Positions 6,299 through 58,957 of a DNA stretch of 64,000 bases are shown piece after piece. The number at the start of each line of letters is the position of its first letter. Positions within the stretch are counted from its first letter, which is position 1. Source of the DNA: Elusimicrobia bacterium HGW-Elusimicrobia-1 (lineage in GTDB: Bacteria; Elusimicrobiota; Endomicrobiia; PHAN01); assembly GCA_002841695.1 (NCBI GenBank), contig PHAN01000002.1, positions 90,807 through 154,806 of the forward strand, read 5' to 3'. The notes beneath the pieces were generated by a model. The model was not told where the DNA came from, made no database searches, and was given only the letters and a program-made list of their open reading frames with translations. The position numbers and the translations under genes were made by a program.

Positions 6299-6370
6299 AG
6301 GGGTGTCCGAAGGACGAGGTGTTATTCCCCTTTTACAAAAGGGGTGTCCCGAAGGGACGGGGTATTTGAG
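6137..6370. repeat. Cluster of short CCCCTTT-N-AAAGGGG type hairpins (P1-related) overlapping the 3' end of the giant gene
   Basis: Successive inverted repeats: ccctctcccatcgagggagaggg, cacccctttaataaaggggaa, ttcccctcttttagaggggtg, ttccccttttacaaaaggggtg. Confidence 0.6.
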
Positions 6371-6447
6371 GGGTAAAATGATGGCGCGATTTTAACAGGA
6401 TATGTGATAAAAAAAGTCAAGGGTAAACCCTTGACTGGGAGGTAGTT

Positions 6448-7635: not shown

Positions 7636-7720
7636 AAAATCTCCCCTAACCCCTCTTTTTCAAAGAGGGGGAATAAGGGAACAATCCCCCTTTATTAAAG
7701 GGGGATAAAGGGGGATTTTT
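7636..7720. repeat. P1 palindromic element (AAATCCCCCT...CCCCCTTTnAAAGGGGG...AGGGGGATTT)
   Basis: Terminal inverted repeat aaaatctcccct / agggggatttt enclosing two internal hairpins; same family at 39948, 40383, 50775, 58173. Confidence 0.7.
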
Positions 7721-8849: not shown

Positions 8850-8906
8850 TGTAGGGGGCTTTATGTTCGTAACAAATTTACGTATTTACGCCCTGTAGTG
8901 TAGGGG

Positions 8907-9080
8907 CTTGTCCCCGTAGGCAAAAGGACTTGTCCCCGTAGGCAAAAGGACTTGTCTCCGTAGGCAAAAGGACTTGTCTCCGTAGGCAAAAGGGCTTGTC
9001 CCCGTAGGCAAAAGGGCTTGTCCCCGTAGGCAAAAGGACTTGTCTCCGTAGACAAAAGGGCTTGTCCCCGTAGACAAAAA
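8907..9080. repeat. Tandem repeat, 8 copies of a 22-bp unit (cttgtccccgtaggcaaaagga), ending at the RAYT start codon
   Basis: Eight head-to-tail units with few substitutions, no spacers; first unit overlaps REP-like gtagtgtaggggcttgtcccc. Confidence 0.85.
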
Positions 9081-9538
9081 TGGAACCACCAAAAAAAATC
9101 CGGCTGGAAAAAGAACTATATTCACAACCCGGAAGAATATATTTTGTTACTGTTAATACAAATTTTAAAAAAGGTTTTTTTATAGAGGACAACTTTAATC
9201 GCGAAATTATACAGTGTTTATTGACGGAGAGAAATAACAGATATAGTATTTTCGTATATTGTTTGATGCCTGACCATATTCATTTTTTAATTTCAACAAA
9301 TGCTGAAAATTATTCAATTACTGATTTTGTGAATAGATTTAAAGGATTGACAACAAGAATTGGTTGGAAATACGGTGTTGAAAAAGTTCTATGGCAAAGA
9401 AGATTTTACGATCATATATTAAGAAAGCAAGAAGATGCTAAAAAAATTGCGGAGTATATAGTTAGCAATCCTGTAAGAAAAGGTTTGGTTAAAAATTGGA
9501 AAGAATATCCATATTGTGGGTATATAGATGAATTTTAA
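9080..9538 (+). CDS. REP-associated tyrosine transposase (IS200/IS605 TnpA-like, HUH Y1 family)
   Basis: 152 aa; HUH motif in CLMPDHIHFLIS; conserved C-terminal tyrosine region AEYIVSNPVRKGLV; codon usage AT-rich relative to neighbours. Confidence 0.8.
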   Translation: MEPPKKIRLEKELYSQPGRIYFVTVNTNFKKGFFIEDNFNREIIQCLLTERNNRYSIFVYCLMPDHIHFLISTNAENYSITDFVNRFKGLTTRIGWKYGVEKVLWQRRFYDHILRKQEDAKKIAEYIVSNPVRKGLVKNWKEYPYCGYIDEF

Positions 9539-12215: not shown

Positions 12216-12257
12216 AGTGGTCAGTGGATAGTGGTTAGTAAATAAAACGGATAATAT

Positions 12258-13250
12258 ATGAGAAAATTGTGTCTTTCGACTAGTGTTTCGACGGCAACTC
12301 GCGGACGAGGACGGCCCCTGCGACGGATTGCCCTTGTCCTTGCCTTTACTATCCACTATACACTGACCACTAACCACTCTCTACACGCCGCCGGCACGAC
12401 ATCCGCGACTTTTCTTAAACTCGGTGTCGGGGCGAGACCGGTGGGGATGGCCTCGGCGTTCGCAGGCGTGGCCGACGACGTCAACTCCGTCGCATGGAAC
12501 CCTGCGGGGCTCGCCTCAGTCGACGCGAAAGAATTTTCGTTTATGCATCTTGAACATTTTCAGGACGTGCGCTACGATTCGCTGTGCTATGCTCATCCTA
12601 TGAAAAAAACGGTCGTCGCATTCGGCTTTGGCTATCTGTATACCGACGAGATAACAAGGACTTTCATAGACGACGATGTTTATGCGGGTTTTCGCGCGCA
12701 GGGAGATTACCGGCTCCAGGATAGGACGTTTTTTGTTGCGGCGGCAAGACGAATCTCCGATGATAAGGCCGTCGGAGCGCTCGTCAGGTGGCTTTCGGAG
12801 AGGATAGAAGATAATGAAGCGACGGGGCTCGCCGCCGACGTCGGATATCTTCATCTCGTGACGGACCGTCTCGCGTTCGGTTTGTCCGTCCAGAATATCG
12901 GCGGGACGATAAGATTCATCGCGGCCGACGAAATGCTGCCGCTGACTTTTCGCGCGGGCTTCGGATATGACGTTGTCGCCGGAAAACTCAAACTCGCGCT
13001 CGACTTCGTCAAGCCCGTCGACTATCAACTTTCGATCAATCTCGGCGCCGAGTACAGGGCGTTTGACGCGCTCGCCGTCAGAGGCGGATGGAGCTTCAAA
13101 GATTTGTTCTACGACGACCGGCTTAACGGAACATCCGGCGCGGCTCTGGGGATGGGGTTTTCTTTTCACAATTATTCTCTTGACTACGCTTTCGCGCCTT
13201 ATGGAGAGCTCGGTTATTCTCACAGAATATCGTTCGGGGGAAAGTTTTGA
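12258..13250 (+). CDS. Beta-barrel outer-membrane protein, PorV/PorQ- or PorP/SprF-like
   Basis: N-terminal motif LKLGVGARPVGMASAFAGVADDVNSVAWNPAGLA; alternating beta-strand-like pattern; C-terminal ...ISFGGKF (terminal Phe). Confidence 0.6.
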   Translation: MRKLCLSTSVSTATRGRGRPLRRIALVLAFTIHYTLTTNHSLHAAGTTSATFLKLGVGARPVGMASAFAGVADDVNSVAWNPAGLASVDAKEFSFMHLEHFQDVRYDSLCYAHPMKKTVVAFGFGYLYTDEITRTFIDDDVYAGFRAQGDYRLQDRTFFVAAARRISDDKAVGALVRWLSERIEDNEATGLAADVGYLHLVTDRLAFGLSVQNIGGTIRFIAADEMLPLTFRAGFGYDVVAGKLKLALDFVKPVDYQLSINLGAEYRAFDALAVRGGWSFKDLFYDDRLNGTSGAALGMGFSFHNYSLDYAFAPYGELGYSHRISFGGKF

Positions 13251-13254
13251 AAAA

Positions 13255-13425
13255 GCAGGGTTTAGAAAGACAGGGTTTAGGGCATAGGGTCTAGGGTTTA
13301 GTAAAATGAATAAAAAACAGAGTATAAAAAAGACAGGGTTTAGGGTTCAGGGTTTAGGGGTTAGGTTTTTTTTCTTTTTTCTTTTTTCTATTTTCTATCC
13401 CCTAACCCATAGACCCTATACCCTG
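13255..13425. repeat. Leader palindrome P3 built from GGGTTTAGGG-type units; contains start codon and signal-peptide coding region of 13306..15414
   Basis: cagggtttagggcatagggtctagggtttag ... cagggtttagggttcagggtttaggggttagg ... ctatcccctaacccatagaccctataccctg; near-identical copy at 22629-22772. Confidence 0.75.
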
Positions 13426-22628: not shown

Positions 22629-22772
22629 TTAGGGTCTAGGGTTTAGTAAAATGAATAAAAATATAGAAAAGACAGGGTTTAGAAAGGCAGGGTTTAGGGT
22701 TCAGGGTTTAGGGGTTAGGATTTTTGTTTTAATTTTTTTCTATACCCTAACCCCTAAACCCCATGCCCTGCT
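22629..22772. repeat. Leader palindrome P3 (second copy), overlapping start of 22651..23760
   Basis: gttagggtctagggtttagtaaaATG...cagggtttagggttcagggtttaggggttagg...ctataccctaacccctaaaccccatgccctg. Confidence 0.75.
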
Positions 22773-26338: not shown

Positions 26339-28363
26339 ATGAAAAAGAAAAAAAATATCGCGTTCGCGAACAAGAATCATATGATCATCGCCTCGGCGGT
26401 TTTTGTAGCGCTTCTTGCGGTTTCTTCCGCCGCCGGTCCTTTGGCGCCGAAAGCCGTTCAGGGCGGCGTGGAATTCGCTTACGAAGCCGCCCGCGACGCC
26501 AAAAAGATTGCCGTGGCCGGTGAGTTTAATTCATGGAACCATGAAAAAAAATTTCTAAAGTACGACCCCGTCCGCGGACTCTGGACGACGGTTGTTGAGC
26601 TTGGCGAGGGAAGACACGAATATAAATTTGTCGTCGACGGAACGTGGCAGGAGGGCGCCAATCTCGTCGCCGAAGTGAAAAAGAAAGACGGACGGCTTGT
26701 TGTTGAGGAGCCCGCCTCCGCGCCCAATACGCCCTACTCGGCAAAGATAAATTTCTCGGGCAAGTTCGTCGCCGAACTCGGAGCGCAGTCCCGCCAACAG
26801 CGGGACGACTTCTCTTCCATGCCGCCCGTCAATCACGCGGACTTCGACTGGAATATAACCGCCTCGAAAGACGCCTCGGGCTTCGCGCGGCTTGAATATG
26901 ACGGCGACAAAACCTCGGGCAAACTCCTATTTAAACAGGGCCGGATAAGTTTCGCGCCGACGGGTTTCGAGACGTCGATGTATTACAAGCAGAAAGCGAT
27001 TCAGTTCGACGACCCTCTGCGCGCGACAGACAGGGCCGTGACGCTGAAATACGACGCCGTCGAGTTCTTCGATGAAACCAATCCGCATAAGGCGTTCGGT
27101 CTCTGGGAGCAGGCCGTCGCCGTAAAAACGGATTTTCTCGGCGGGGCCTTTTCCGCGTTTTATTCGGACATGCTCCGTCCGGCGACGTACTTTCACACTC
27201 TTGAAGACAACAGCGGACTTCGTTATGCGCGGAGTTTCAAATCCATCCCGTTGAAAATCGCTTTTACGACGAGGCGCACTCGCGGCGGATGGTGGCCGTG
27301 GGCGAACAGCGACAACAACTGGTTTCCCGATCCCGAAAAGCCGAACGGCTACTCATGGGACGCCGCGGCCAGAGGAAGCGTTGCGACCTGGTATAACGGA
27401 TATCTCAACGAAGATTTCATAGGCGTTGACGGAAAATTCGACTTTCTGCCCGGTGTCGCCCTGTTCGGTGAAACGGCGTCGGTAAAGAAAGAATTGAAAT
27501 CGCAAAAGATATCGGGGGGCAGCGCGCACGAAAAGACGTGGACCATCGAAAACGGCGCCGAGAGTATTTACGGCGTAAAATACTCGCGCGGAAAGATACT
27601 CTCGCTTCAGGCCTCGGCGTCAAGCCGGAACACAACTTTCACCCCGCCGCTTTATGCGGGCGAAACCTTCGCCGCCACCGGCTCCGGTTTTTCTTTGGCC
27701 GCGCGTCTGCGCGCCGGATCTTTCACTTTAGCGGCGGCGGGCTCGTCGCGAAAAAACTCGCGGATAGAAAAAATACTCCCGCTCGACATACATCCCTACG
27801 CGCGGCCTCTCGTCTATCAAGGTCTATTTCCGATGGAAGCCGCGTCCGTCGGATTTCTCGTCCATGCCGTCGAAGAGGAAAATGCCGTTATAAGCGCCGC
27901 GGAATATTCCGCTCCCGCGTTTTCCGTCGGAGCGAAAAGCAGAATATCTTCGCTTAAACTCTTGCCGCGATCCTACGCCGGCGGAATCTGGAATGTCAAT
28001 CCGTTCATCGCCGCGCCCGACGAAATCACGCTTTCCGAGTCGGCGCTCGATGCCGCCGTCAAAATTTGGCCGGATATTACGGTCGAGTCCGCGCTCAGAT
28101 TGTTCGCGTGGGACGATAAAAACGAAGGCGGCTTGAAAGCATACTCGGCGCTTTTTCTGGCGCTCAAATACGACTTCTCGAAAAATTCATACGTGCGGCT
28201 CGGTTGGGGGCTCGACCCCGAGGACACCGACGACGATATTCTCGCGGGATTTGACGCGCGGGAAAGCTTTTTATATAATCTGCGCGAAGCGTCGATTCTT
28301 GAAGCCGCGCGGACGCTTGAGTCGCTTCGGAGAATTTCCGTGCGTATGTTCGTGAGATTTTAA
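26339..28363 (+). CDS. Fusion of N-terminal CBM48 (AMPK-beta glycogen-binding type) domain to a predicted outer-membrane beta-barrel
   Basis: SD ACGGAG; signal peptide; CBM48 motif KKIAVAGEFNSWNHE...GRHEYKFVVDGTWQEGANLVA; 500-aa C-terminal region ending ...RMFVRF. Confidence 0.6.
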   Translation: MKKKKNIAFANKNHMIIASAVFVALLAVSSAAGPLAPKAVQGGVEFAYEAARDAKKIAVAGEFNSWNHEKKFLKYDPVRGLWTTVVELGEGRHEYKFVVDGTWQEGANLVAEVKKKDGRLVVEEPASAPNTPYSAKINFSGKFVAELGAQSRQQRDDFSSMPPVNHADFDWNITASKDASGFARLEYDGDKTSGKLLFKQGRISFAPTGFETSMYYKQKAIQFDDPLRATDRAVTLKYDAVEFFDETNPHKAFGLWEQAVAVKTDFLGGAFSAFYSDMLRPATYFHTLEDNSGLRYARSFKSIPLKIAFTTRRTRGGWWPWANSDNNWFPDPEKPNGYSWDAAARGSVATWYNGYLNEDFIGVDGKFDFLPGVALFGETASVKKELKSQKISGGSAHEKTWTIENGAESIYGVKYSRGKILSLQASASSRNTTFTPPLYAGETFAATGSGFSLAARLRAGSFTLAAAGSSRKNSRIEKILPLDIHPYARPLVYQGLFPMEAASVGFLVHAVEEENAVISAAEYSAPAFSVGAKSRISSLKLLPRSYAGGIWNVNPFIAAPDEITLSESALDAAVKIWPDITVESALRLFAWDDKNEGGLKAYSALFLALKYDFSKNSYVRLGWGLDPEDTDDDILAGFDARESFLYNLREASILEAARTLESLRRISVRMFVRF

Positions 28364-28842: not shown

Positions 28843-29859
28843 ATGAAACGCAGATTTGTGGTTGCGCTGGTTTGCGCTCTGACGGCGGCATTCGCCGTTT
28901 CTTCAGCCGGAGCGAAACTGAGGAAAGTCGGTTCGGCCGAGAGCGGCAAATCCGTCGAATGCGCTACGCGCGTTACCGGCGCGGGCGTCGAGTTCGTTTA
29001 CGAAAACCCCTCGGCGAAAAACGTCTTCGTGGCCGGTTCTTTCAACGACTGGAACTCTTCGCGCGACGCTCTTTCGAAAGATAAAAAGGGTGTTTGGCGC
29101 GCGACGCTGCCGTTGAAAACGGGAACGCATCAGTACAAGTTCGTCGTCGACGGCAACTGGATGGCAGATCCTTCCAATCCTCAAACCTCCGACGACGGCT
29201 TAGGCGGGAAAAACTCGGCTGTGGAAATAAAATCTGCGGCAGATGGAAAACCCGCCCCCGCAACCGCGGCGCCCGGCGCAGGCGGGCCGAAAGTTACGGG
29301 CGAGGGCGTTAGATTTGTCTATAAAAACCCCGCGGCGAAAAACGTCTTCGCGGCGGGCGAGTTCAACGCATGGAACGCGCAGGCCGATCCGCTCATAAGG
29401 CAGAAAGACGGAACGTGGCTGCTCGTCAAGAAAATCCCCCCCGGAAGATACAATTATAAGTTCATCGTCGACGGACAGTGGCTCAATGATCCCGTCAATA
29501 CCGCAACCTCCGACGACGGTTACGGCGGAAAGAACTCGGTTCTGGAAGTAGTCGCAGCCGCCGCGCCGTCGCACAAACTGTCGGCCGCGACGAGACAGAC
29601 CAAGACGGGGATAGAGTTCGTTTACGAAAATGCATCCGCCAAAAGCGTCGCAGTTGCGGGCAGTTTCAATAACTGGAGCGCCTCGTCGCACCGTCTCGAA
29701 AAGGATAAGTCGGGCATCTGGAAGACATCGGTTCCTCTGGGTAAAGGCAAATATCAGTATAAGTTTGTCGTCGACGGCGAATGGAAAGAGGATCCGTCGA
29801 ACTCCCAAAACTCCGAAGACGGCCTCGGCGGGAAAAACTCAGTCATCGAGGTTCGCTGA
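28843..29859 (+). CDS. Secreted protein consisting of three tandem CBM48-like glycogen/starch-binding domains
   Basis: Three internal repeats of VEFVYENPSAKNVFVAGSFNDWN...HQYKFVVDGNWMADPSNPQTSDDGLGGKNSAVEI (second and third copies at ~aa 150 and ~aa 250). Confidence 0.75.
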   Translation: MKRRFVVALVCALTAAFAVSSAGAKLRKVGSAESGKSVECATRVTGAGVEFVYENPSAKNVFVAGSFNDWNSSRDALSKDKKGVWRATLPLKTGTHQYKFVVDGNWMADPSNPQTSDDGLGGKNSAVEIKSAADGKPAPATAAPGAGGPKVTGEGVRFVYKNPAAKNVFAAGEFNAWNAQADPLIRQKDGTWLLVKKIPPGRYNYKFIVDGQWLNDPVNTATSDDGYGGKNSVLEVVAAAAPSHKLSAATRQTKTGIEFVYENASAKSVAVAGSFNNWSASSHRLEKDKSGIWKTSVPLGKGKYQYKFVVDGEWKEDPSNSQNSEDGLGGKNSVIEVR

Positions 29860-36572: not shown

Positions 36573-38960
36573 ATGAACCCAAAAACAAAAACATTTTTGG
36601 CGGCTGCTTTTTTTTGTGTATCGACGATATCCGGTTTATTCCCGCCGCCCGCGCACGCGCGAGGGCTTGAAACGCCCGTCATCGACGTCGAGGCGGGTTC
36701 CGTCGTCGAGATGCCGCTTGATTTGTTCGTCGGCGCGCCCGTCGCGTCGGGGCCGGCGGTTACCAATATATCCGGCGCGAAGTCCGTCCGCGTTTCCGTC
36801 GCGCCAAAAAGATCCGCCCTCGTCATTTCGGCGCCGGCGGGTTTTTCGGGCTTCGACGCTTTCGTCGTCTCGGCTTCCTCCGACGGCAAAACGACTTTTT
36901 CGCGCGCCGTGGCGGTGAGGGTGACAGCGCCGCGCCGGACTGTTTTGCGCTATAAACCGGCAAAATCCGTCAAATCCGTCGCCGCGGCGGGGGACTTTAA
37001 TTCGTGGAATCCTTCCGCCTCGCCCATGACGGGGCCCGACAAGAAAGGTTTCTACTCCATTGAGCTTAAACTCGCCGCCGGAGAGTACAATTATAAGTTC
37101 GTCGTCGACGGACAATGGCTCGCCGACACGGCCAACCCCGCATCCGTCCCCGACGGCTTCGGCGGAACGAACTCCGTTGTTTTCGTAGGCGCGCCGCCTA
37201 AGTCCGGCCGATGGCACAGCGTTGTCGTCGACGATACAACCGCGCGCGTCGCGTATATCGCCGGCAAAGCCGCGCCGTCTTTCGACGCCGCATCGCTGTT
37301 GCTCGTCTCCGGCGATAAAATCCTCGCCCGCGGAGGCGACTATTCCGTTGATGAAACGCGCGGCGAAATAGCGATTAAACTCGCATCCCTCGGTTCGCCG
37401 CCCGCCGACGTCATGATATTGGCCCGCGATAAATCGGGTGCGATACTGAGCGGCTTCGTCGCCCGCTTTCCGTCGGACGACGGATGGAACGGGCGGCTGA
37501 TGTACTTCGCCTTCACCGACAGATTTCACAGCGGCTCGGCCGCCAATGACCGGCCATCCGGCGACCCTGACGTTGCGCCGGCGGCGGATTTTCGCGGTGG
37601 CGATTTTGCCGGCATCACAGAAAAACTCCGCGACGGCTATTTTGAGCGGCTCGGCGTGGGAGCGCTGTGGATATCGCCTCACTTTAAGAATCCCGACCGG
37701 CCATATATCGACGCTCTTCCTCCGCATAGAAAGTTTACCGGCTATCACGGCTACTGGCCGGTTTCTTTCGACGAGACCGACCCGAGATTCGGGACTATTG
37801 AAGAACTCCGCGAACTCGTGGCCGCGGCCCATAAGCGCGGCATCAAAGTCATTCTCGATATGGTGTTAAACCACGCCCACGAGGAAAATCCCGTCTACAA
37901 GAAAAATCCCGGATGGTTTTCAAAAATTACTCTGGCCGACGGCCGCAAAAATATCCGTCTTTTCGACGAGCGTCCGCTCGACACGTGGTTCGACGACTTC
38001 CTGCCCGACTTTGCCTACGAAGGTAATCCCGCCGCCGTCGAATATATGGTCTCAAACTGCCTCGATTGGATCAAGAAAACAAACTGCGACGGCTTCCGCC
38101 TCGACGCCGTCAAGCACGTGCCTATGGTATTCTGGACGGAACTCCGCCGCCGCATCCGCCGCGACATCGAAATCCCGCGCGGAGAAATGTTTTACCTCGT
38201 AGGAGAAACCATCTCCGGACGCGAAAAAATAATGGAATACGTCGGCTTTGATAAACTCGACGGACAGTTTGATTTTCCGATATACTGGGCGATAAAAGAC
38301 GTCTTCGCCTGGCAAACTAAAGGTCTCGACTATCTCGAACGCGAGAGCGGGAAATCAGCTTTGCAGTACGTCGGATCCATTCCGAGCCCGCTTTTGGGCA
38401 ATCACGACTTTGCCCGTTTCAGCGCTTTCGCCGACGGCGCGATACCTCCCGGTTCCAACGAAAAAGCGCGCTCGTGGGACAATCGCCCCGAAGTCAAAAA
38501 CCGCTCTACCTATCAAAAACTCCGTATGGCTTTCGCTTTTCTTCTCTCTGAGCCGGGCGTTCCCATGATTTATTACGGCGACGAAATAGGCCTCTCGGGC
38601 GCGGGCGACCCCGACAACCGCCGAATGATGAAGTTCGACAAACTCTCAGGCGACGAGCGCGAAACCCTCCAATATGTCGGCGCGCTGGCCGCGTTCCGCC
38701 GTGCCTCCAAGGCGCTCCGTTTTGGCGAGCGCCACACGCTTGTGTCGTCGGAAAACACCCTCGTTTACCTCAAAAATTATTTCGGCGAAACTGCCGTCGT
38801 TGCAATCAACCGTTCGCCCCGCCCCGCCGAAGTCAGCGTTGAACTTCCGCCGTTTTTCAAAAACCCCGCGTCCTTTGAAGACGTAGTAAGCGGCAAAAAA
38901 ATCCAACTCAAAAAGTTGCGCATCCCCCCGATGAGCGCCGTCGTCCTTCGCGGCATCTGA
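36573..38960 (+). CDS. Secreted GH13 alpha-amylase-family enzyme with CBM48-like domain
   Basis: Start at ATG 36573 (after SD aggaagtaagagg) preferred over track start 36495; signal peptide MNPKTKTFLAAAFFCVSTISG; CBM48 AAAGDFNSWNP...GEYNYKFVVDGQW; GH13 regions VILDMVLNHAHE, GFRLDAVKHVP, FYLVGETISG, LGNHDFARF. Confidence 0.85.
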   Translation: MNPKTKTFLAAAFFCVSTISGLFPPPAHARGLETPVIDVEAGSVVEMPLDLFVGAPVASGPAVTNISGAKSVRVSVAPKRSALVISAPAGFSGFDAFVVSASSDGKTTFSRAVAVRVTAPRRTVLRYKPAKSVKSVAAAGDFNSWNPSASPMTGPDKKGFYSIELKLAAGEYNYKFVVDGQWLADTANPASVPDGFGGTNSVVFVGAPPKSGRWHSVVVDDTTARVAYIAGKAAPSFDAASLLLVSGDKILARGGDYSVDETRGEIAIKLASLGSPPADVMILARDKSGAILSGFVARFPSDDGWNGRLMYFAFTDRFHSGSAANDRPSGDPDVAPAADFRGGDFAGITEKLRDGYFERLGVGALWISPHFKNPDRPYIDALPPHRKFTGYHGYWPVSFDETDPRFGTIEELRELVAAAHKRGIKVILDMVLNHAHEENPVYKKNPGWFSKITLADGRKNIRLFDERPLDTWFDDFLPDFAYEGNPAAVEYMVSNCLDWIKKTNCDGFRLDAVKHVPMVFWTELRRRIRRDIEIPRGEMFYLVGETISGREKIMEYVGFDKLDGQFDFPIYWAIKDVFAWQTKGLDYLERESGKSALQYVGSIPSPLLGNHDFARFSAFADGAIPPGSNEKARSWDNRPEVKNRSTYQKLRMAFAFLLSEPGVPMIYYGDEIGLSGAGDPDNRRMMKFDKLSGDERETLQYVGALAAFRRASKALRFGERHTLVSSENTLVYLKNYFGETAVVAINRSPRPAEVSVELPPFFKNPASFEDVVSGKKIQLKKLRIPPMSAVVLRGI

Positions 38961-39947: not shown

Positions 39948-40027
39948 AAATACCTCCCCCTTTGGAAAAGGAGGATTGAGGGGGAAATCGGCCTCCCCCT
40001 TTTTAAAGGGGGAAAGAGGGGGATTTT
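39948..40027. repeat. P1 palindromic element
   Basis: aaatacctcccccttttggaaaaggaggattgagggggaaatcggcctccccctttttaaagggggaaagagggggatttt. Confidence 0.7.
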
Positions 40028-40033
40028 AATTTT

Positions 40034-40383
40034 ATGATTTTGCCATACAGTCCCAAGTTAAAATCATATTCAAGAGAATTAAGAAAGAATATGACGGATG
40101 CCGAGAAAAAAATATGGGGAAAACTCCGACGGAAGCAATTAAAGAAATGTCAATTTTACAGACAAAGAGTGATAGGTGAATATATAGTGGATTTTTTTGT
40201 TCCTCCGCCAAATTGGTCATCGAAATCGATGGCGGCCAACACTATACGAAAGATGGTATGGGCAGAGATAAGATCCGTGATGATTACATTAAAAATCTCG
40301 GTGTCAAGATATTAAGATTTACGGACAGAGAAGTTTTACAAAATATTGATTTAGTGGTTGGGCAAATATATGAAAATTTGTAA
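40034..40383 (+). pseudogene. DUF559-family endonuclease-like gene disrupted by a frameshift in a T7 homopolymer (or a homopolymer sequencing error)
   Basis: N-terminal LRKNMTDAEKKIWGKLRRKQL...FYRQRVIGEYIVDFF in frame 1; shifting +1 after the T run gives CSSAKLVIEIDGGQHY...GVKILRFTDREVLQNIDLVVGQIYENL ending at 40383; AT-rich. Confidence 0.7.
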
Positions 40384-40462
40384 AAATCCCCCTGTGTCCC
40401 CCTTTAAAAAAGGGGGATTAAGACATTTCGTCGAGCTCCCCTTTTAAAAAGGGGGAATAGAA
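40383..40462. repeat. P1 palindromic element
   Basis: aaaaatccccctgtgtccccctttaaaaaagggggattaag...gctccccttttaaaaagggggaat. Confidence 0.7.
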
Positions 40463-47803: not shown

Positions 47804-47912
47804 AGGGCAGTGGTTAGTGGCGAGTGGTTAGTGGATAGAAAGGGCAGTGGTTAGTTTTTTGTTTTTACTATCCACTATTCACTAACCACTCGCCACTATA
47901 CACTAGCCACTT
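47804..47912. repeat. P2 hairpin (agtggttagtggatag arms around T-rich loop), terminator-like, downstream of giant gene
   Basis: gggcagtggttagtggcgagtggttagtggatagaaagggcagtggttagttttttgtttttactatccactattcactaaccactcgccactata. Confidence 0.7.
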
Positions 47913-47932
47913 ACTTTTGATTGGAGGAAAAA

Positions 47933-48883
47933 ATGAAAAAATTCTCATCGACAGGGTCATTGTTTATTCTCTTGTTTATCGTTTTTACTATCCACTACCC
48001 ACTAACCACTAACCACTGTCTTTACGCCGCCGGTCTCTCGTCTCCCAACGCCTCGATGTATCTGGGTAACCTTAAAATCGGCCAGACGTATTCACTCAGA
48101 CAACTGCTGGGCTACCCATTCAAAGCCACCTACAAAGGACGCTCAATGGCCGACCTGTCCATAAGCGTGATCGCGCTGTCCACCGCGACATCCGACGGAT
48201 ACGAACCCATCCCGTCCAACGACTGGATAGAAATCGAACGCTCGCATTTCTCTCTCGATCCGGGCCAGACCGCCGAAACCGACATCCTCATAAAAATCCC
48301 CGACGACACCGCGCATCTTGACAAAAAATATATCGTCATAATACAGCCACAGTCGGGCGCGCCGCGCGCCAGCGGAGCGGGCATTGTTTTCGGCACGGCG
48401 CTCAGGTGCCAGTTGCGCCTCGACATAGCCGCGCTTCCTCCCACGCCGGACGAAATCCGGCAGTTACGGCGCCTTCGGCACGGACAGTCGGTCGGTGTGG
48501 TTGTGTCTCCGGAAAGAATTTTCGTAAACGAAATCGAGGCGGGAAAAAAGATAGACGTCAAAAAAACTTTCGGCGATGTTATAAAAATAGTGAACTCGTC
48601 GGATTTCGACGTAGAGGCCGTCATAGAGTCCGCCGACCCCGCCAAGTTCGGGATGTTCGCCCCGTCGGGTTATGAAACCGCCCCCGATCACAAATGGCTT
48701 GTGCCCGCAAAAAGAAAAATCAAGATTCAGAAAAACCGCATAGCCGAGGCGCCGGTTACCATAAACATTCCTTCCGGCCCGGAACACGAGGGGAAAAGCT
48801 ACTATTTCGCCATTGCCGTAACCGTCAAATCGCCCATAAGAGAAGTCAATCATCTGGTCAGATTCTTTGTGGATATGAAGTAG
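47933..48883 (+). CDS. Secreted protein A1 of duplicated two-gene cassette (unknown function)
   Basis: ATG 47933 with GGAGGA 5 nt upstream (track start 47921 is TTG); leader SLFILLFIVFTIHYPLTTNHCLYAA; paralogous to 51140..52039 (NLKIG, GYEPxP, HLxKKY, ISAPSGY shared). Confidence 0.7.
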   Translation: MKKFSSTGSLFILLFIVFTIHYPLTTNHCLYAAGLSSPNASMYLGNLKIGQTYSLRQLLGYPFKATYKGRSMADLSISVIALSTATSDGYEPIPSNDWIEIERSHFSLDPGQTAETDILIKIPDDTAHLDKKYIVIIQPQSGAPRASGAGIVFGTALRCQLRLDIAALPPTPDEIRQLRRLRHGQSVGVVVSPERIFVNEIEAGKKIDVKKTFGDVIKIVNSSDFDVEAVIESADPAKFGMFAPSGYETAPDHKWLVPAKRKIKIQKNRIAEAPVTINIPSGPEHEGKSYYFAIAVTVKSPIREVNHLVRFFVDMK

Positions 48884-48948: not shown

Positions 48949-49326
48949 ATGATAGGAGTTAGGAGTTATAAAGATTTAATAATCTGGCGAAAAAGTATGG
49001 AACTTGTAAAAATTGTGTACAAAGCGACCAGTAGTTTCCCGCAAAAAGAATTATTCGGATTGACAAATCAGATGAGAAGGGCAGCCGTATCGATACCTTC
49101 AAATATAGCGGAAGGGCAGGCCAGAAACCATACGAAAGAATTTGTGCAGTTTCTGTATCAGGCGTTGGGCTCCCTGGCGGAACTTGATACACAGGCAATA
49201 ATAGCCAAGGAACTGGGTTATCTAAAAGCAGTGGATAGTGGTGAGTGGATAGAAAGACAAACTGCCGAACTTCAAAAGATGACACACGGCCTACTCAAAA
49301 AACTAACCGCTATAGACAGTGGATAG
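48949..49326 (+). CDS. Four-helix-bundle protein (family formerly called 23S rRNA intervening-sequence protein)
   Basis: SYKDLIIWRKSMELVKIVYK...FGLTNQMRRAAVSIPSNIAEGQAR...ELDTQAIIAKELGYL; AT-rich; start at ATG 48949 after GGGGGG SD preferred over 48928. Confidence 0.8.
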   Translation: MIGVRSYKDLIIWRKSMELVKIVYKATSSFPQKELFGLTNQMRRAAVSIPSNIAEGQARNHTKEFVQFLYQALGSLAELDTQAIIAKELGYLKAVDSGEWIERQTAELQKMTHGLLKKLTAIDSG

Positions 49327-49410
49327 TGGCGAGTGGTTAGTGGATAGAAAGGGCAGTGGTTAGTTTTTTGTTTTTACTATCCACTATTCACTAACCACTA
49401 ACCACTGCCC
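49318..49410. repeat. P2 hairpin, terminator-like
   Basis: gggcagtggttagttttttgtttttactatccactattcactaaccactaaccactgccc (13-bp perfect outer stem). Confidence 0.7.
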
Positions 49411-49668
49411 CTAAAAAACCCTTGACTTTATATAATTATTTTGCTATATACTGTATATCAAACAGGAAGCATACTTCTTAATTTAACATCTTGAATAAAA
49501 TGAGACGTGGGTTGGCCCGCCGAAGAAGGGCAGGAGGTGAAAAAAGGTCGTATGATTCAATCTTTAAAAAGCAATAGAGAAAAAGAGCTCGCGGCGTCGG
49601 TGGTGACGGAGTGCGCACCGTCATCCGTGACAGGCGCGGGCAAAAATCAAAAGGAAGAGGGAGGATTT

Positions 49669-50630: not shown

Positions 50631-51000
50631 TTTGCCGGCGGATGCGGTTGTCTATTCTCTACGGGGAGAAAAAACATCACCCATTCGCCGGCCTTCTTTT
50701 TTGCGGAGCGGAGGTCTATCTCTACGGGGAGAAACGCCTGCCGCTCCGCTTACTATTTTGCAGAAACGCGTCGGGAAAATCCCCCTGTATCCCCCTTTAA
50801 AAAGGGGGAATATCGCACCTCCCCCTTTGGAAAAGGGGGACTGAGGGGGATTTCAAAAAACCATTTTGCCGGCGGACCGGAAGTTTGCCTCTACGGGGAG
50901 TGCATCACTACCGGTCCCGCCGGCTTACTTTTTTTTGCGGACGGACACGAACGTCGAACCTCTACGGGGAGGCAGTACGCATCGCCCGTCCGCATCTTTT
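50631..51000 (+). repeat. Array of four ~70-bp hairpin units with conserved loop motif CTCTACGGGGAG and covarying stems, interrupted by a P1 element (50775-50853)
   Basis: Loops at 50657, 50721, 50890, 50961; stems gccggcg/cgccggc, gcggagcgg/ccgctccgc, gccggcggaccgg/ccggtcccgccggc, gcggacgg/ccgtccgc; each unit followed by a T run; reverse-complement motif ctccccgtagag at 50438. Confidence 0.7.
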
Positions 51001-51056
51001 TCGGGGGGCGTACGAGCCGCCCCTTCAACTATCGGGGGCGGACACGGTTGTCTATT

Positions 51057-51090
51057 ATCGGAGTTTATCCCCGCGAAGGCGGGGAGGGAG
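51057..51090 (+). promoter_or_regulatory. Conserved leader motif TCGGAGTTTATCC-hairpin-GGGAGGGAG, ~50 nt upstream of start codon
   Basis: tcggagtttatccccgcgaaggcggggagggag; copies at 56353-56384 and 58101-58136 with compensatory stem changes. Confidence 0.5.
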
Positions 51091-51139: not shown

Positions 51140-52039
51140 ATGACTAAAAATGTTTTCACCCCGCTTGCTCTGCTGATTTTATCGGCATTTATTGCGCCGC
51201 GCGGTTTGGCGGCGGCCTCGATTGCCACCAATTACTCCGACGTTTACGTGGACAATCTTAAAATCGGCGGCTCCTACAATCTTACGGCCACCGCCAATTA
51301 TCCTATGTGGATATTGTGGAAAGGCGGCGACAGGGCGCTGATAAAAGTGACGCCGAAACTGCCTTTCAAGGAAGTTATGCGCGCGGGATACGAACCCGTG
51401 CCCGATATTTCGTGGATAACGGTTTCAAAAAAAGAGTTTGAACTGATGAGCGACGAAACGGCCAATATCGACGTAACGGTAAACGTGCCAAACGACCCGA
51501 AACATCTGGGCAAAAAATATCAGGCGCTCGTCGAGGTTTCGGCAAATCCGCCCAAGGGTTCGCCCGGCGTCTCGATTGCCCTTGCCGTAAACGGGAAGAT
51601 ACTTATGAGCGTGGCCGGCAAGCCGCCGACCGAAGAGGAATTGTCCGAATTAAGGCGCGAACGAATACGCGCAAGGCGGGGGGTGATCATTGAGCCGGAG
51701 CGGCTTGAGGCATCGGTAAAAGCGGGGGGCATCAACGCCGAATTAACGGCCGACGAACCGCTTAAAATTATCAATTCGTCGAGGGAAAAAGTGTCCGTGA
51801 CGATAGAATCCGTCGCGCCCGAAGTCGCCGGGATATCGGCGCCGTCGGGATATGCCAAGGGCGCGGCCAAGGACATAAGTTTTTCAAAGACGTCGGCGTC
51901 TCTTGAGCCGGACAAGATTGAAAATATCGGAGTGTTTCTCAGGAAAGTGCCGTCGGACAAGTCGTTTTATATTGTCAGAATAACCATAAAGTCGCAGACG
52001 CTTGAAGTCGCAAAATTCGTGAGGGTTTATGTCAACTGA
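51140..52039 (+). CDS. Secreted protein A2 of duplicated cassette (paralog of 47933..48883)
   Basis: ATG 51140 preferred over track start 50885, which lies in the repeat array; signal peptide MTKNVFTPLALLILSAFIAPRGLAAA. Confidence 0.7.
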   Translation: MTKNVFTPLALLILSAFIAPRGLAAASIATNYSDVYVDNLKIGGSYNLTATANYPMWILWKGGDRALIKVTPKLPFKEVMRAGYEPVPDISWITVSKKEFELMSDETANIDVTVNVPNDPKHLGKKYQALVEVSANPPKGSPGVSIALAVNGKILMSVAGKPPTEEELSELRRERIRARRGVIIEPERLEASVKAGGINAELTADEPLKIINSSREKVSVTIESVAPEVAGISAPSGYAKGAAKDISFSKTSASLEPDKIENIGVFLRKVPSDKSFYIVRITIKSQTLEVAKFVRVYVN

Positions 52040-52042
52040 GAA

Positions 52043-52162
52043 AAAGTGGGTAGTGGATAGTGACGAGTGGTTATGGGTAGTGGATAGTGGCGAGTGGTTA
52101 GTGGATAGAAAGGGCAGTGGTTAGTTTTTTGTTTTTACTATCCACTAATCACTATCCACTCT
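52043..52162. repeat. P2 hairpin cluster, terminator-like
   Basis: agtgggtagtggatagtgacgagtggttatgggtagtggatagtggcgagtggttagtggatagaaagggcagtggttagttttttgtttttactatccactaatcactatccact. Confidence 0.7.
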
Positions 52163-52271
52163 CTTTAAAGGAGGCAGTATGAACGGTTTAAGTCGTTTCA
52201 AAGATGTCCCGCAAACGGTGCGGGAAACAAAATCAAGTCCCCCGACGGAAACGCGGGGACAGGGAGGCAGT

Positions 52272-56000: not shown

Positions 56001-56119
56001 AGCATATATTCTGGGACGGTCTCGACGACAACAATCGCATCGTCGCGCCCGGCGTCTATGTTTATCAGTTGGAACTTGAAGAAAAAATTATCAACGGCAC
56101 CATAGTGGTGGCCAGGTAA
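53078..56119 (+). CDS. Large FN3-containing surface protein with C-terminal FlgD-Ig/T9SS type-B-like domain (GTG start)
   Basis: 1013 aa; FN3 signatures GTYYYFAVKSVDRYHRFS, TTYYVHLFTKNEW; C-terminus RIITPNNDGINDRAMFRF...ITLKIYDINSVLVRDI...WDGLDDNNRIVAPGVYVYQL...TIVVAR. Confidence 0.75.
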   Translation: MKRNKSLSTIFLRALLTGIIAAHGAPMPSMLYAAPVTLRGSPPYAGPPNRVTSIIAAPDFSAPEAEGKIKLNWTAPSDAGGLDVFSYIVKYATFSVADMGGDKDAWWDHPQCITAFDPELNVRWGKKSLVSSQGNEIISVSGLESGTYYYFAVKSVDRYHRFSVWDIPYDGVSSQSNAYATTPPWQPYIVTTLAAEPMAAIRAAAMLEWFAPLFVENNPPYEILPGHIKQLGQYCIQYSTAPPPEPVNRPNQPNNWAASQRIIVSTRNVQSGDLQNYVLTGLSHNTTYYVHLFTKNEWPNKWSYASYPVTTVRPYIDLSPVDDLVATASASADNDIASFVTLSWENPENEQFFAGARVGYSTSSYPSSPDSGNYFDVEPLASGTSTDYAHIRLLPRHNYYYSVWAYDSNHFYSSPRNAQTFTSFDINPPAGVKNITSFVDVSTDGDEDAYAIRLAWSAPDASAAMLYRNIDFDRVRVYVSTTSADPADHVYLSTASASETAFIHSGAAPYTTYYYSFASVDAISNEQTAVERSTHSVYICEDHVPPSAPTIVTHLYTASREYADGCKVALTWRAPPESHFARIVARISLDGFPLSVSDGDALTEWTGLPDATGSAEFKRLVSLTTNYISLFAVAERGAASRPAKVAVYTDIPWTDTVSPHVPRDVRISSSRRVTWSPVKYDANLAAIPNYATPRTDQIYFYEILKSTSMKGPWIVGDRMNPSLTFCDIAAAATGYYKIRAVDAGRNCADSYAFDLDGNIYVAAGDSSYVKVPADIVSSLRTPSNPAKDSHLLSLSRVPADEKGIIYKSVEFRSSAISETSDAMRLQDVPGFSLGAPGAKLAFSYDTDRDSVAVAAPSRKAPSRPEIQSQLGVFYYNGVEWQRINLSAAAPDGYVISSVRFAGKYQLRRAASTGEFAFYDAVPRIITPNNDGINDRAMFRFANPQGRSITLKIYDINSVLVRDIGETTAASDTPGEHIFWDGLDDNNRIVAPGVYVYQLELEEKIINGTIVVAR

Positions 56120-56162
56120 AGATAAAGAAGTGAATAGTGATTAGTGGATAGTAAAAGAAAAA

Positions 56163-56274
56163 ACAAGAAGCAAGATAAACCGTCATTCTGAGCGAAGCGA
56201 AGAATCCTCGTCATCTTCCGGCGAAGAATCCTCGCCATACTCTAACAAGATCCTTCGCTTCGCTCAGGATGACA
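56163..56274. repeat. Palindromic element (gtcattctgagcgaagcgaag ... cttcgcttcgctcaggatgac)
   Basis: Near-identical copy at 58838-58957. Confidence 0.7.
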
Positions 56275-56436: not shown

Positions 56437-58074
56437 ATGAATACACTTATTAAAATCATCAAAAAATTTCCGCCGCCGTCGTCATTGTTTATTCTCTTGT
56501 TTATCGTTTTTACTATTCACTATTCACTATCCACTATTCACCCTCTTTACGCCGCATTCGAGGATATTTCCGTCGGCGGACGTCCCGCGGCTTTTTCCGG
56601 CGCGTATACAGCGGTCGAAGGCGACGCGTATTCCATCTACTACAATCCCGCGGCGCTTGCGGGTATGGCAAGGGCCGAGTTCGGCGCGCAATATTCCAAA
56701 CTTCATACGGGGCTTACGGACGGTTCGGAACTCTCCAACGCTTTTTTCGGCGTGGCGCAGCCGCTTAAATTCGGCTCGGCCGATTACGGCACAATCGGCG
56801 CGGGATGGATAAGATTCGACCTTGCGGAACTTTATCAGGAAAATACTATAATCTTGTCCTGGGCGCGTGACATTGTAAAGAACAAACTTTCCTTCGGATT
56901 CGGCGCCAAAATGCTCTCTATTACCTACGGCGAAAACGACTACACCAAAAACGCCTTCGACAACGAGGGCAACACGACCGGCGCGGCGGACCCGCTTTTC
57001 AACTATGGCTATATCAAATCCGCCGCCGACTTCGACGCCGGAATAAGATACGCTTTCGCCAAAAATTACGCCGTGGCCGCCGTCGCGCAGAATCTGGCGG
57101 GCGCAAATATATCGCTCGTCAACGACCCCAATGTCGCGCTGCCGCGTCGTTACCGTTTCGGCCTTGCTCACACCGGCAAGGCCTACGCGCTTTCGGCCGA
57201 TGTCGCGGGCGCTTCGGACTCTTCGGTAGTGCGCGGAATGGTCGGCGTCGAAAAAAGTTTCGACTTCGGTGGCGCCCTGAGGGCCGGGCTGGGAATGGGC
57301 ACCGACGGATGGGCCAATATCGCCGGCGGTTTCGGATTCAAAGCCGACGCCCTCAGCTTCGATTACGGCCTCGCATGGCCGTTGTCGGGCATAAAGAACA
57401 CTTCAGGCAGTCACAGGGTCTCGGTGAATTTCAAATTCGGGCCCGTTATGCGCCACCCCGAATCCGACTCGGAAACGCAGGTGCGCCTGGCGCAGGAAAT
57501 TACCGCCCGCAAAGAGTACGAGCAGAAATACAGGGTGTCCGAGATAGAACTCGCCCGCGCTAGAGAAGAGATAAGACAGCTCAAAAATCAGATAGAGGAA
57601 TTGCTCAAGCGTCCGTCGGCTCCCATACCGGCGCCAAGAGAAATCGCGTCGCCCAAGCCGACGGTTACGGAGACGCCCGCGGCCGTCAAACCCGGCGTAA
57701 CGCCGGCCGCGCCCGCTATGCCCACCGATATCGACGCTTTGAGAGCCGCTTATGCCAAAGAATTCAACCAGTATCAGCGCGACGCTTCCAAAATGGATAT
57801 TAAGCAGCGCATCGCGGCGGTTGACGTCATAGTCGCGCGTTATCAGGGCAAGATAAAGATAACCGAAGCCGTCGACGAACAGATGATACTCAGGAATGAA
57901 TTCGCCGCGCAGACCAAGTTCTATAACGACGCGCTTACTTACTACAAACGTCTCGTACGGCAGGGTATATCCGTCGAGGAGCGCAAGGACATACTCAATC
58001 GCATGATAACCAAGTACCAGGTGCTCGGCGTCGATGTAACTGTCGCCAAAGAGGAGCTTAAGACGGTAAAATAA
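56437..58074 (+). CDS. Beta-barrel OMP (PorV/PorQ- or PorP/SprF-like) with C-terminal coiled-coil/Pro-rich extension
   Basis: ATG 56437 after aaaggag (track start 56269 lies in repeat); leader SLFILLFIVFTIHYSLSTIHPLYAA; motif GRPAAFSGAYTAVEGDAYSIYYNPAALAG; C-terminal EIELARAREEIRQLKNQIEELLKRPSAPIPAP. Confidence 0.6.
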   Translation: MNTLIKIIKKFPPPSSLFILLFIVFTIHYSLSTIHPLYAAFEDISVGGRPAAFSGAYTAVEGDAYSIYYNPAALAGMARAEFGAQYSKLHTGLTDGSELSNAFFGVAQPLKFGSADYGTIGAGWIRFDLAELYQENTIILSWARDIVKNKLSFGFGAKMLSITYGENDYTKNAFDNEGNTTGAADPLFNYGYIKSAADFDAGIRYAFAKNYAVAAVAQNLAGANISLVNDPNVALPRRYRFGLAHTGKAYALSADVAGASDSSVVRGMVGVEKSFDFGGALRAGLGMGTDGWANIAGGFGFKADALSFDYGLAWPLSGIKNTSGSHRVSVNFKFGPVMRHPESDSETQVRLAQEITARKEYEQKYRVSEIELARAREEIRQLKNQIEELLKRPSAPIPAPREIASPKPTVTETPAAVKPGVTPAAPAMPTDIDALRAAYAKEFNQYQRDASKMDIKQRIAAVDVIVARYQGKIKITEAVDEQMILRNEFAAQTKFYNDALTYYKRLVRQGISVEERKDILNRMITKYQVLGVDVTVAKEELKTVK

Positions 58075-58100
58075 TATATCGGCGGGACACGGGGTCTACA

Positions 58101-58136
58101 TCGGAGTTTATCCCGCCATAGGCGGGTGGGGGGAGG
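58101..58136 (+). promoter_or_regulatory. Conserved leader motif (third copy, diverged)
   Basis: tcggagtttatcccgccataggcgggtggggggagg. Confidence 0.4.
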
Positions 58137-58172
58137 AAAGAACACCCGCTGTCCCGCCGGAAAAGCAAATTA

Positions 58173-58268
58173 GAAATCCCCCTGTATCCCCCTTTTAAAA
58201 GGGGGGTTGAAAGAGATTGTCGGGTGAAGTTCATCCCCCTTTGAAAAAGGGGGAAAGAGGGGGATTTA
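58173..58268. repeat. P1 palindromic element
   Basis: gaaatccccctgtatcccccttttaaaaggggggttgaaag...catccccctttgaaaaagggggaaagagggggattt. Confidence 0.7.
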
Positions 58269-58336: not shown

Positions 58337-58702
58337 ATGAAAATAAATAAAACATTCTCAGCCGTAATGGCCGCGCTTGTCGCCTGCGCTTGTCTTGCCG
58401 CGCCGGCGCCGGCCGAGTTCCGTCTCGTCGATGTAAAGCCGCGCGTGCTTACGCCCGGCGGCTCGTCGGGTTTCAACGACCGCGTAATATTTTCTTTCGT
58501 CGAGCCGGACGAAAAGCTCACTTTAAGAATATTCACTCTCGACGGCAGAAAGATAGAGGAAATTGATTACGGCGCGGCCGGAACGGAACGTCTCGTCTGG
58601 AACGCCTGCGCCGCGGGGTCAATGGTGTCGCCCGGCGTTTATATTTATCAGCTTGAAGCCGACGGAAAAGTTTTTTCGGGGACATTGGTGGTGGCAAGAT
58701 AA
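58337..58702 (+). CDS. Small secreted protein consisting essentially of a FlgD-Ig/T9SS-like C-terminal domain
   Basis: Signal peptide MKINKTFSAVMAALVACACLAAPAPA; LTLRIFTLDGRKIEEI...WNACAAGSMVSPGVYIYQLEADGKVFSGTLVVAR. Confidence 0.65.
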   Translation: MKINKTFSAVMAALVACACLAAPAPAEFRLVDVKPRVLTPGGSSGFNDRVIFSFVEPDEKLTLRIFTLDGRKIEEIDYGAAGTERLVWNACAAGSMVSPGVYIYQLEADGKVFSGTLVVAR

Positions 58703-58705
58703 AAT

Positions 58706-58957
58706 AAAGTGATTAGTGGCGAGTGGTTAGTGGTTAGTAAAAGAAAAAGCAAAATGTCATTCCCGCGCCGCGCCGTAGGCGATGCTCCGCAAATGCGGGG
58801 CTGTGGGAACGCGGAAATCCAGAGCAATTAAATAGAGTCAAGAAGCGAGAGTCAAGATAAATCGTCATTCTGAGCGCAGCGAAGAATCCCCGTCATATTC
58901 CGGCGGGGAATCCTCGCCATACTCTAAGAGGATCCTTCGCTTCGCTCAGGATGACAG
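58706..58957. repeat. Composite repeat: P2 arm, gtcattcccgcg palindrome, and gtcattctgagcg...cgctcaggatgaca palindrome
   Basis: agtgattagtggcgagtggttagtggttagt; gtcattcccgcgccg...ggaacgcggaaatccagag; gtcattctgagcgcagcgaagaatcc...ggatccttcgcttcgctcaggatgacag. Confidence 0.7.

Follow-up and report, generated by a model that had tools for sequence, protein, structure and literature searches.

P1 palindromic repeats of an Elusimicrobia genome: repeat class and a possible link to DUF559 nuclease genes

The P1 repeats in the genome of Elusimicrobia bacterium HGW-Elusimicrobia-1 are, by their sequence architecture, inverted pairs of modules of the BoxC/PIT/intrastrand-triplex type with G5 stems. P1 is a new family of a repeat class that is already known and is in itself ordinary. 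What appears to be new is the link between such modules and genes of the DUF559 endonuclease family, which is strong when approached from the side of the genes and weak when approached from the side of the repeats. The analysis was done on a stretch of 64,000 nucleotides of one contig, hereafter called the window, and on related loci of other genomes and metagenomes.

Architecture and class of the P1 modules

The initial annotation of the window described a family of palindromic elements of 80-95 bp with terminal inverted repeats, present at six loci. The existence of the family was confirmed. On the two strands of the window together, AAATCCCCCT is found 7 times (0.19 expected from shuffles), hairpins of the CCCCCTTTnAAAGGGGG type (short C5-T3...A3-G5) are confined to the loci named in the annotation, and a strict three-block scan of the window recovered 10 modules, compared with about 0.9 in 20 Markov shuffles. 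The P1 copies could be aligned into one single consensus, in which the arms and the hairpin stems are invariant; variation is seen in the loops of the hairpins, in the linkers of 3 nt and in the spacer at the centre. The element of 80-95 bp was nevertheless not retained as the repeated unit: the copies have unrelated spacers (10-28 nt), and what is conserved is a half of about 33 nt, in which a 3-nt linker connects an arm (AAATCCCCCT) to a hairpin (TCCCCCTTT..AAAGGGGGA). All six loci are real, but only copies A, B and E are full. Copies C and D, which had been considered as full copies, lack the right and the left arm, respectively, and form the two flanks of one gene. The locus at 6137-6373, previously taken for degenerate P1, consists of different subfamilies. 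Every copy is intergenic, in agreement with the annotation, and lies between co-directional plus-strand ORFs. The six loci are the following:

58174-58267, no strand assigned: P1 copy A, inverted pair of triplex-type modules, with C-arm and hairpin at 58174-58206, a 27-nt spacer unrelated to the other copies, and hairpin and G-arm at 58234-58267
50777-50853, no strand assigned: P1 copy B, within the hairpin array 50633-50993, with C-arm and hairpin at 50777-50809, a 10-nt spacer, and hairpin and G-arm at 50820-50853
7637-7719, no strand assigned: P1 copy E, inverted module pair, with a diverged C-arm and hairpin at 7637-7671 (stem CCCCTCT), and hairpin and G-arm at 7685-7719
39955-40027, plus strand: partial copy D, tandem hairpin and G-arm modules at 39955-39988 and 39994-40027, directly 5' of the DUF559 gene
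40384-40456, plus strand: partial copy C, with C-arm and hairpin at 40384-40417, an 18-nt spacer and an arm-less hairpin at 40436-40456
6137-6373, no strand assigned: mixed cluster of five modules belonging to subfamilies other than P1

In the mixed cluster, the module at 6137-6172 is close to the BoxC/TMECO sequence of E. coli (CCTCACCCC-G-CCCCTCTCCC..GGGAGAGGG), and two plain hairpins are located at 6190-6216 and 6248-6268. The modules at 6285-6322 and 6325-6373 represent a third subtype, in which a hairpin is combined with an inserted mini-hairpin (TGTCCGAAGGACG) and with an arm of the GGTGT type; this subtype also flanks DUF559 genes in five other loci (L142, L152, L181, L191 and L194). 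Taken as single strands, the full copies fold much better than shuffled sequences (z of about -4.5 to -6), and a folding energy of -55.6 kcal/mol (z = -6.1) was obtained for copy A; these values represent hairpin folding, the triplex character of the modules being judged from sequence architecture.

The class in question is defined by a pyrimidine stem, a loop of 3-6 nt, a purine stem, a loop of about 3 nt and a second purine block, or by the complement of this arrangement (PMC4666352). Each P1 half has the layout TCCCCCTTT-N2-5-AAAGGGGGA-N3-AGGGGGATTT, in which a hairpin of 9 bp (TCCCCCTTT-loop-AAAGGGGGA) is followed by a third block reading AGGGGGATTT, or AAATCCCCCT on the other strand. This block mirrors the purine stem (AAAGGGGGA versus AGGGGGATTT or AGGGGGAAAT, with T allowed opposite A, as needed for a triplex of the purine motif), and the P1 segment AAAGGGGGA-AAG-AGGGGGATTT is compatible with G*GC, A*AT and T*AT triads. 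In the complete set of fetched loci, the third block was exclusively a mirror repeat in 368 sequence windows versus exclusively a direct repeat in 33, with GAGAGGGGA-TAC-AGGGGTGTG as an example of the mirror rule. The terminal inverted repeat of the initial annotation is therefore present, but it corresponds to the third block of a BoxC/PIT/triplex-type module. P1 was assigned to this class on the basis of its three blocks, its mirrored third block, its variable loops, its inverted pairs and its occurrence in multiple intergenic copies.

In E. coli, the TMECO repeats have the consensus CCCTCNCCC N3-6 GGGNGAGGG N3 GGGNGAGGG (Holder 2015, NAR, PMC4666352). According to the same study, strain MG1655 harbours 23 copies, all of them intergenic and including five inverted pairs; TMECOs have conserved stems and variable loops, display no strand bias and are widespread in bacteria. 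Their single-stranded DNA formed a triplex in vitro, which was not shown in vivo, and PIT/TMECO elements had neither promoter nor terminator activity. They are associated with local sequence turnover, most loci are positionally stable, and it was explicitly stated that no mobility genes were seen near TMECOs. Earlier work on the class by Bergler, by Bachellier, and by Hoyne and Maher is cited in that article (PMC4666352). P1 resembles the BoxC/PIT/TMECO repeats in its three blocks, conserved stems with variable loops, intergenic and multi-copy occurrence without strand bias, inverted pairs, spread over distant bacteria and association with local sequence turnover. Unlike TMECO (CCCTCNCCC/GGGNGAGGG), however, its stem is TCCCCCT(TT)/AAAGGGGGA. 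An assignment of P1 to TMECO sensu stricto was rejected, as the stems TCCCCCT/AGGGGGA depart from the consensus and no module other than that at 6137-6172 comes near the TMECO sequence. Searching the whole window against Rfam gave zero matches at gathering thresholds and only meaningless miRNA-hairpin matches at permissive E-values, and a literature search with the literal P1 sequence returned nothing else than noise from NF-kB sites.

When one genome per species was scanned with AAATCCCCCTNNNTCCCCC, at least 120 loci were detected. The matches listed include Gamma-, Beta- and Deltaproteobacteria, Chloroflexi, Nitrospirota, cyanobacteria, Omnitrophota, Parcubacteria, Trueperaceae and Leptospiraceae. 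The number of matches is itself near chance expectation, AAATCCCCCTNNNTCCCCC having 16 specified bases; a complementary G-run hairpin follows in 126 of the 140 evaluable matches among those listed, which is beyond chance. Many of the matches listed are single halves, and convergent P1-like pairs (spacers of 8-106 nt), back-to-back pairs and loci with both arms on one hairpin were also encountered. Since lone halves are common and the spacers of the window are unrelated, the conserved entity can be defined as arm, linker and hairpin. The view of P1 as a lineage-specific, MITE-like unit was consequently abandoned, as the copies show no target-site duplications and the module is known from Gammaproteobacteria to Chloroflexi, cyanobacteria and CPR.

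DUF559 genes and their flanking modules

One feature had been missed in the initial annotation: a frameshifted DUF559 endonuclease gene lies between the copies that it placed at 39948 and 40383. The corresponding features are:

40034-40383, plus strand: DUF559 (Vsr-fold, PD-(D/E)xK) endonuclease gene, stop codon at 40381-40383
39955-40456: cassette of modules and frameshifted DUF559 gene, the window containing three gene-less pairs elsewhere

Besides this locus, the window contains no further copy of DUF559. The gene is frameshifted at a run of seven T (40192-40198) located between the catalytic D and the ExD motif, so that no uninterrupted frame runs through D...ExD. After a +1 frame correction, the protein is full length and is recognized as Pfam PF04480 with an E-value of 3.9e-35 (120.5 bits versus a cut-off of 20.6), and it matches PDB entry 3HRL with an E-value of 1.3e-18. 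The truncated ORF of 93 aa has no record elsewhere. A relative of about 95% identity (L210) displays the same modules, copies C and D both being kept, together with an intact DUF559 gene in which the frame through D...ExD is preserved by a run of eight T (~1181-1188). Given this intact T8 version versus T7 in the window, the window gene is either a pseudogene of recent origin, a phase variant or the product of an assembly error; the T7/T8 difference itself could result from an error of assembly, from recent inactivation or from a slippage-prone on/off switch. The proximal arm of copy D (AGGGGGATTTT) ends 6 nt before the ATG, at the typical position of a ribosome-binding site, and the C-arm of copy C begins on the first base after the stop codon. 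DUF559 belongs to a fold group in common with Vsr, DUF2726 and the homing endonuclease I-Bth0305I (PMC3424549).

The association was further investigated from the gene side with 80 metagenome loci encoding DUF559 relatives (38-66% identity), nearly all of which are bracketed by analogous modules. An inverted repeat of at least 12 bp joining both flanks was detected in 44 of 75 DUF559 loci versus 3 of 198 shifted controls. Strict modules were present within 110 bp of the gene ends for 55 of 74 DUF559 genes, compared with 11 of 100 other ORFs (P = 4e-18), and at both ends for 24 of the 74 DUF559 genes, compared with a single one of the 100 other ORFs of the same loci. The main order is hairpin and G-arm, gene, C-arm and hairpin (H-g, gene, c-H), and solo P1 copies are made of the same halves in the opposite arrangement. 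Deviating arrangements were also observed: the gene is located between two complete P1-like pairs in L159 and L166, inside one P1-like pair in L137, and beside arrays of modules in the same orientation in L128, L178 and L187-L189. In the two loci with two DUF559 genes (L164 and L190), both genes are accompanied by the same module type.

Module types (C5TT, C4TCT with GGGGTGTGT arms, CCCTCC and others) form blocks along the DUF559 tree, in which the window gene groups with other C5TT loci. This clade-wise co-variation of modules and DUF559 could be due in part to shared host ancestry. In non-syntenic loci, DNA homology covers the gene and 40-130 bp on each side, and the sequences are unrelated beyond. 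Units of gene and modules of 0.55-0.7 kb were recovered in unrelated contexts, with 95% identity over 557 bp between L143 and L146 and 98% over 665 bp between L189 and L192. Among the metagenome loci compared, no clean pair of an empty and an occupied site was found. In line with the flanking repeats, DUF559 genes have been reported as enriched, with an odds ratio of 14, among inverted-repeat-flanked candidates for 'programmed inversion' (PMC9881135).

From the repeat side, a tblastn search of about 4 kb around the 120 matches listed detected DUF559 near only two of them (L050 and L058). All-against-all BLAST of the ORFs located within 1.5 kb of the 142 motif instances listed did not reveal any recurrent neighbour gene; the families that clustered were all generic ones (ABC, response regulator and SDR).

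In E. coli, the DUF559 gene ycjD ends inside a C-rich half-module, and a canonical BoxC is located about 200 bp downstream. Of 5426 complete E. coli genomes, 3375 contain the ycjD region; the alternative allele of the sapF-fabI interval is not an empty site but carries the eef operon (eefRABCD efflux). For the comparison with published TMECO counts (Table S7 of Holder), the strains were assigned to phylogroups by us. The gene ycjD occurs in phylogroups A, B1 and C, and in ST69 and ST182 (PMC12817139). The counts amount to 13-30 TMECOs in strains assigned to A/B1/C, 0-2 in B2, 10-11 in E, 13 in D and 6-7 in F (Holder Table S7, PMC4666352). That the TMECO count follows the presence of ycjD is suggestive only: the separation is nearly complete and involves few independent phylogenetic events. 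As side observations, the K-12 locus (L207, 3560-3910, minus strand) contains a 43-nt duplicate of the 3' end of ycjD, followed by degenerate and canonical BoxC modules, and the original BoxC locus by envM/fabI adjoins the DUF559 gene of this genome.

Turnover of solo copies and candidate explanations

The initial annotation had proposed to look for insertion polymorphism between strains. At close range none was seen, as copy A is identical in five assemblies of the source population. In the relative L212, of which the neighbouring protein has 83% aa identity, copy A is present with the same spacer, and copy and whole intergenic region are about 97% identical. At larger distance, copies are missing. 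The genome from SRR4188643 (L211 and L213, 78-81% aa identity) has no module in the 14 kb orthologous to ~47.5-61 kb of the window. Copy A is absent at the orthologous site in L211, and at the position of copy B, L213 displays two more array hairpins and no P1, the hairpins on both sides being clearly orthologous. With copies A and B both missing from this more distant relative, solo copies have been gained or lost. Copy B (50777-50853) does lie inside the hairpin array, as had been annotated, and the claim that it was inserted after the array had formed holds in a broader form: since the array of L213 is free of P1, P1-B entered, or replaced part of, an existing array. The junctions are not clean, and beside copy B the window keeps an apparent 5' half of one array hairpin of the L213 type (GCAGAAACGCG...).

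By analogy with REP/RAYT, a nuclease-repeat partnership between DUF559 and the modules is considered to have about an even chance of being correct. The DUF559 nuclease would recognise its own modules as hairpin or triplex-like (non-B) DNA exposed in replication, and would nick or cut there. Repair, slippage or gene conversion at the breaks would then copy or homogenise the modules. Solo P1 pairs would be non-autonomous copies, comparable to what REP/REPIN are to RAYT, and the copies of the window, with the resident DUF559 gene being frameshifted, would currently be inert. The REP/REPIN-RAYT system is similar in several aspects: its short palindromes occur as single units, inverted pairs and clusters without target duplications, its gene, usually present as a single copy, lies between inverted units of the matching repeat type, and the repeat type co-varies with the gene lineage (Nunvar 2010, PMC2817692). 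P1 cannot be counted as a member of it, as the heads are AAATCCCCCT and similar sequences without GTAG/CGTC, and the gene flanked in the window is DUF559 (PF04480) and not Y1 (HUH). The modules also add a third, mirror-repeat block, and RAYT is an HUH Y1 enzyme whereas the protein considered here is a PD-(D/E)xK nuclease of about 115 aa, so that the chemistry cannot match. The picture of REP/REPIN and RAYT is reportedly also due to Bertels and Rainey and to Ton-Hoang.

Several points count against the partnership. A nuclease of 115 aa has no strand-transfer activity, and any copying must therefore run through host repair. The P1 spacers, being unrelated, bear no sign that entire elements of 80-95 bp were copied and pasted, and E. 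coli lineages without ycjD (D/E/F) retain 6-13 TMECOs. The positional stability of most TMECO loci, near which no mobility genes were seen (PMC4666352), and the low number of listed motif loci near DUF559 (2 of 120) also argue against it. The more general proposal that BoxC/PIT/triplex repeats are the cognate DNA of the DUF559 family of small Vsr-fold nucleases, each lineage recognising its own module of hairpin and mirror arm, lying between two such modules in inverted orientation and driving or maintaining the dispersed gene-less copies, is put forward tentatively, with a probability slightly below even. The published work on TMECO mentions neither an associated gene nor a mobility function, whereas the modules described here systematically bracket DUF559 genes, and no earlier report linking BoxC/PIT-type repeats to DUF559 was found in the searchable literature. 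If true, this would be a second nuclease-repeat partnership beside REP/RAYT, mechanistically different from it. It would give a testable function to the very large DUF559 family and both an origin and a spreading mechanism to BoxC/PIT/triplex repeats, a class that has stayed unexplained for about 30 years, and it would account for the local instability reported around them.

The main rival, regarded as rather unlikely, sees DUF559 as a free-standing selfish gene of the homing type, for which the modules are pre-existing, safe intergenic targets and not products; they would arise or persist otherwise, by fold-back or slippage repair or by selection on DNA structure. I-Bth0305I, a proven homing endonuclease of the Vsr/DUF559 fold group (PMC3424549; PMC3239194), supports such a scenario, with the difference that this enzyme is intron-encoded and has extra DNA-binding domains, whereas DUF559 genes are free-standing, encode about 115 aa and are located between palindromic repeats, not in a host gene. 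Homing would also fit the compact unit of gene and modules in unrelated contexts, the gene inside a P1-like pair (L137) or between complete pairs (L159/L166), the majority of modules among the matches listed being without a nearby gene, and the persistence of TMECOs in E. coli lineages devoid of ycjD. It leaves unexplained why ycjD-positive E. coli lineages have the highest number of modules and why same-orientation arrays stand beside the gene (L128, L178, L187-L189), and the missing clean pair of empty and occupied sites weighs against it. A weaker rival, considered improbable, holds that the modules are immobile structural or regulatory DNA or RNA elements under local selection, such as transcript-end hairpins, stems sequestering the ribosome-binding site or replication-pausing sites, and that DUF559 uses them for the tight control of a toxic nuclease. 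The G-arm at the expected ribosome-binding site, the C-arm overlapping or abutting the stop codon, and stems conserved next to variable loops, as predicted from structural constraint, are in favour of it, and so is the intergenic region of copy A, which is ~97% identical in L212 versus 83% for the adjacent protein. Scans of the copies for promoters and for intrinsic terminators (a G+C-rich hairpin and a T run) nevertheless revealed nothing consistent, the terminator pattern being matched by copy D only and not by A or B, and PIT/TMECO are devoid of promoter and terminator activity (PMC4666352). Local selection alone would hardly produce near-identical sequences across phyla, and copies A and B are missing at orthologous sites of the relative.

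Bacterial MITEs such as Correia/NEMIS and ERIC are small, intergenic, hairpin-forming elements with inverted ends that vary between relatives. P1 has comparable features, with terminal inverted repeats, a size below 100 bp, an intergenic location, a long hairpin and presence or absence between relatives, and could in principle be a classical MITE, i.e. a deletion derivative of an IS moved in trans by a DDE transposase acting on the AAATCCCCCT ends. This origin is judged very improbable. No direct repeat indicative of target-site duplication flanks A, B or E, the internal spacers are unrelated, half-modules are solitary in most genomes among the matches listed, and no transposase recurs beside the 120 matches listed. 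Moreover, the inverted ends follow the mirror rule with respect to the adjacent hairpin, which would be pointless for a transposase-binding end. Unlike MITEs, P1 has neither a conserved interior nor a parent IS, and its half-units are the conserved entity. P1 was thus rejected as a MITE for want of target-site duplication, of full-length similarity among copies and of a recurrent transposase neighbour.

Additional repeats and observations

The array that hosts copy B (50633-50993 in the window, 4478-5165 in L213) is composed of tandem hairpins with the loop core CTCTACGGGGAG, spaced by TTACT(A/T)TTTT. The stems differ from unit to unit and stay complementary. Four units are present in the window versus about 10 in the relative; some orthologous units are identical, while others have been gained or lost. 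Some hairpins of the array type contain an insert of the form GG(T)TCTA..ATCGGAGTTTATCCCGC..GCGGG in place of the CTCTACGGGGAG loop. They were located as follows:

58090-58160 and 51040-51080 in the window
~2850-2900 in L211
4682-4757, 4766-4840 and 5110-5185 in L213

The hairpin just 5' of copy A carries this insert, whereas in L211 the orthologous hairpin has a plain CTCTACGGGGAG loop. The insert has the appearance of a second small element that is nested within the loops of hairpins.

Contigs of other assemblies from the same population (L205 and L206) end inside or just beside copy A and its upstream hairpin, which suggests that P1-type repeats break short-read assemblies. Gene callers also predict spurious ORFs over the hairpin array, for example a 223-aa call in L209. 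Such repeats can therefore be flagged as a cause of assembly breaks and of spurious ORFs in metagenome bins.

Long inverted repeats of tandem heptamers are a further characteristic of the window, with AGTGGTT/AGTGGAT/AGTGGCG in one arm, ACTATCC/ACTAACC in the other and a T-rich centre. They are located directly 3' of stop codons at 12202-12394, 47804-47927, 47969-48033, 49225-49422, 52031-52176, 56115-56166, 56494-56558 and 58694-58752, and some of the C-rich heptamer arms extend into the part of the next ORF that is predicted to encode a signal peptide (e.g. 47969-48033). A second family of heptamer palindromes (CAGGGTT/TAGGGTT ... AACCCTA) is found at 13241-13420 and 22630-22770, both of which contain the identical 32-mer TAGGGTCTAGGGTTTAGTAAAATGAATAAAAA. 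About 9-10 tandem copies of a 22-nt unit (GGRCTTGTCYCCGTAGGCAAAA) occupy 8860-9101, just 5' of the ORF at 9080-9538. Finally, repeated coding segments with the motif YKFVVDG.W..DP.N... were identified in several large ORFs (26609-26648, 28952-29840 and 37068-37192). They resemble a carbohydrate-binding module, and three of them are arranged in tandem within 28843-29859.
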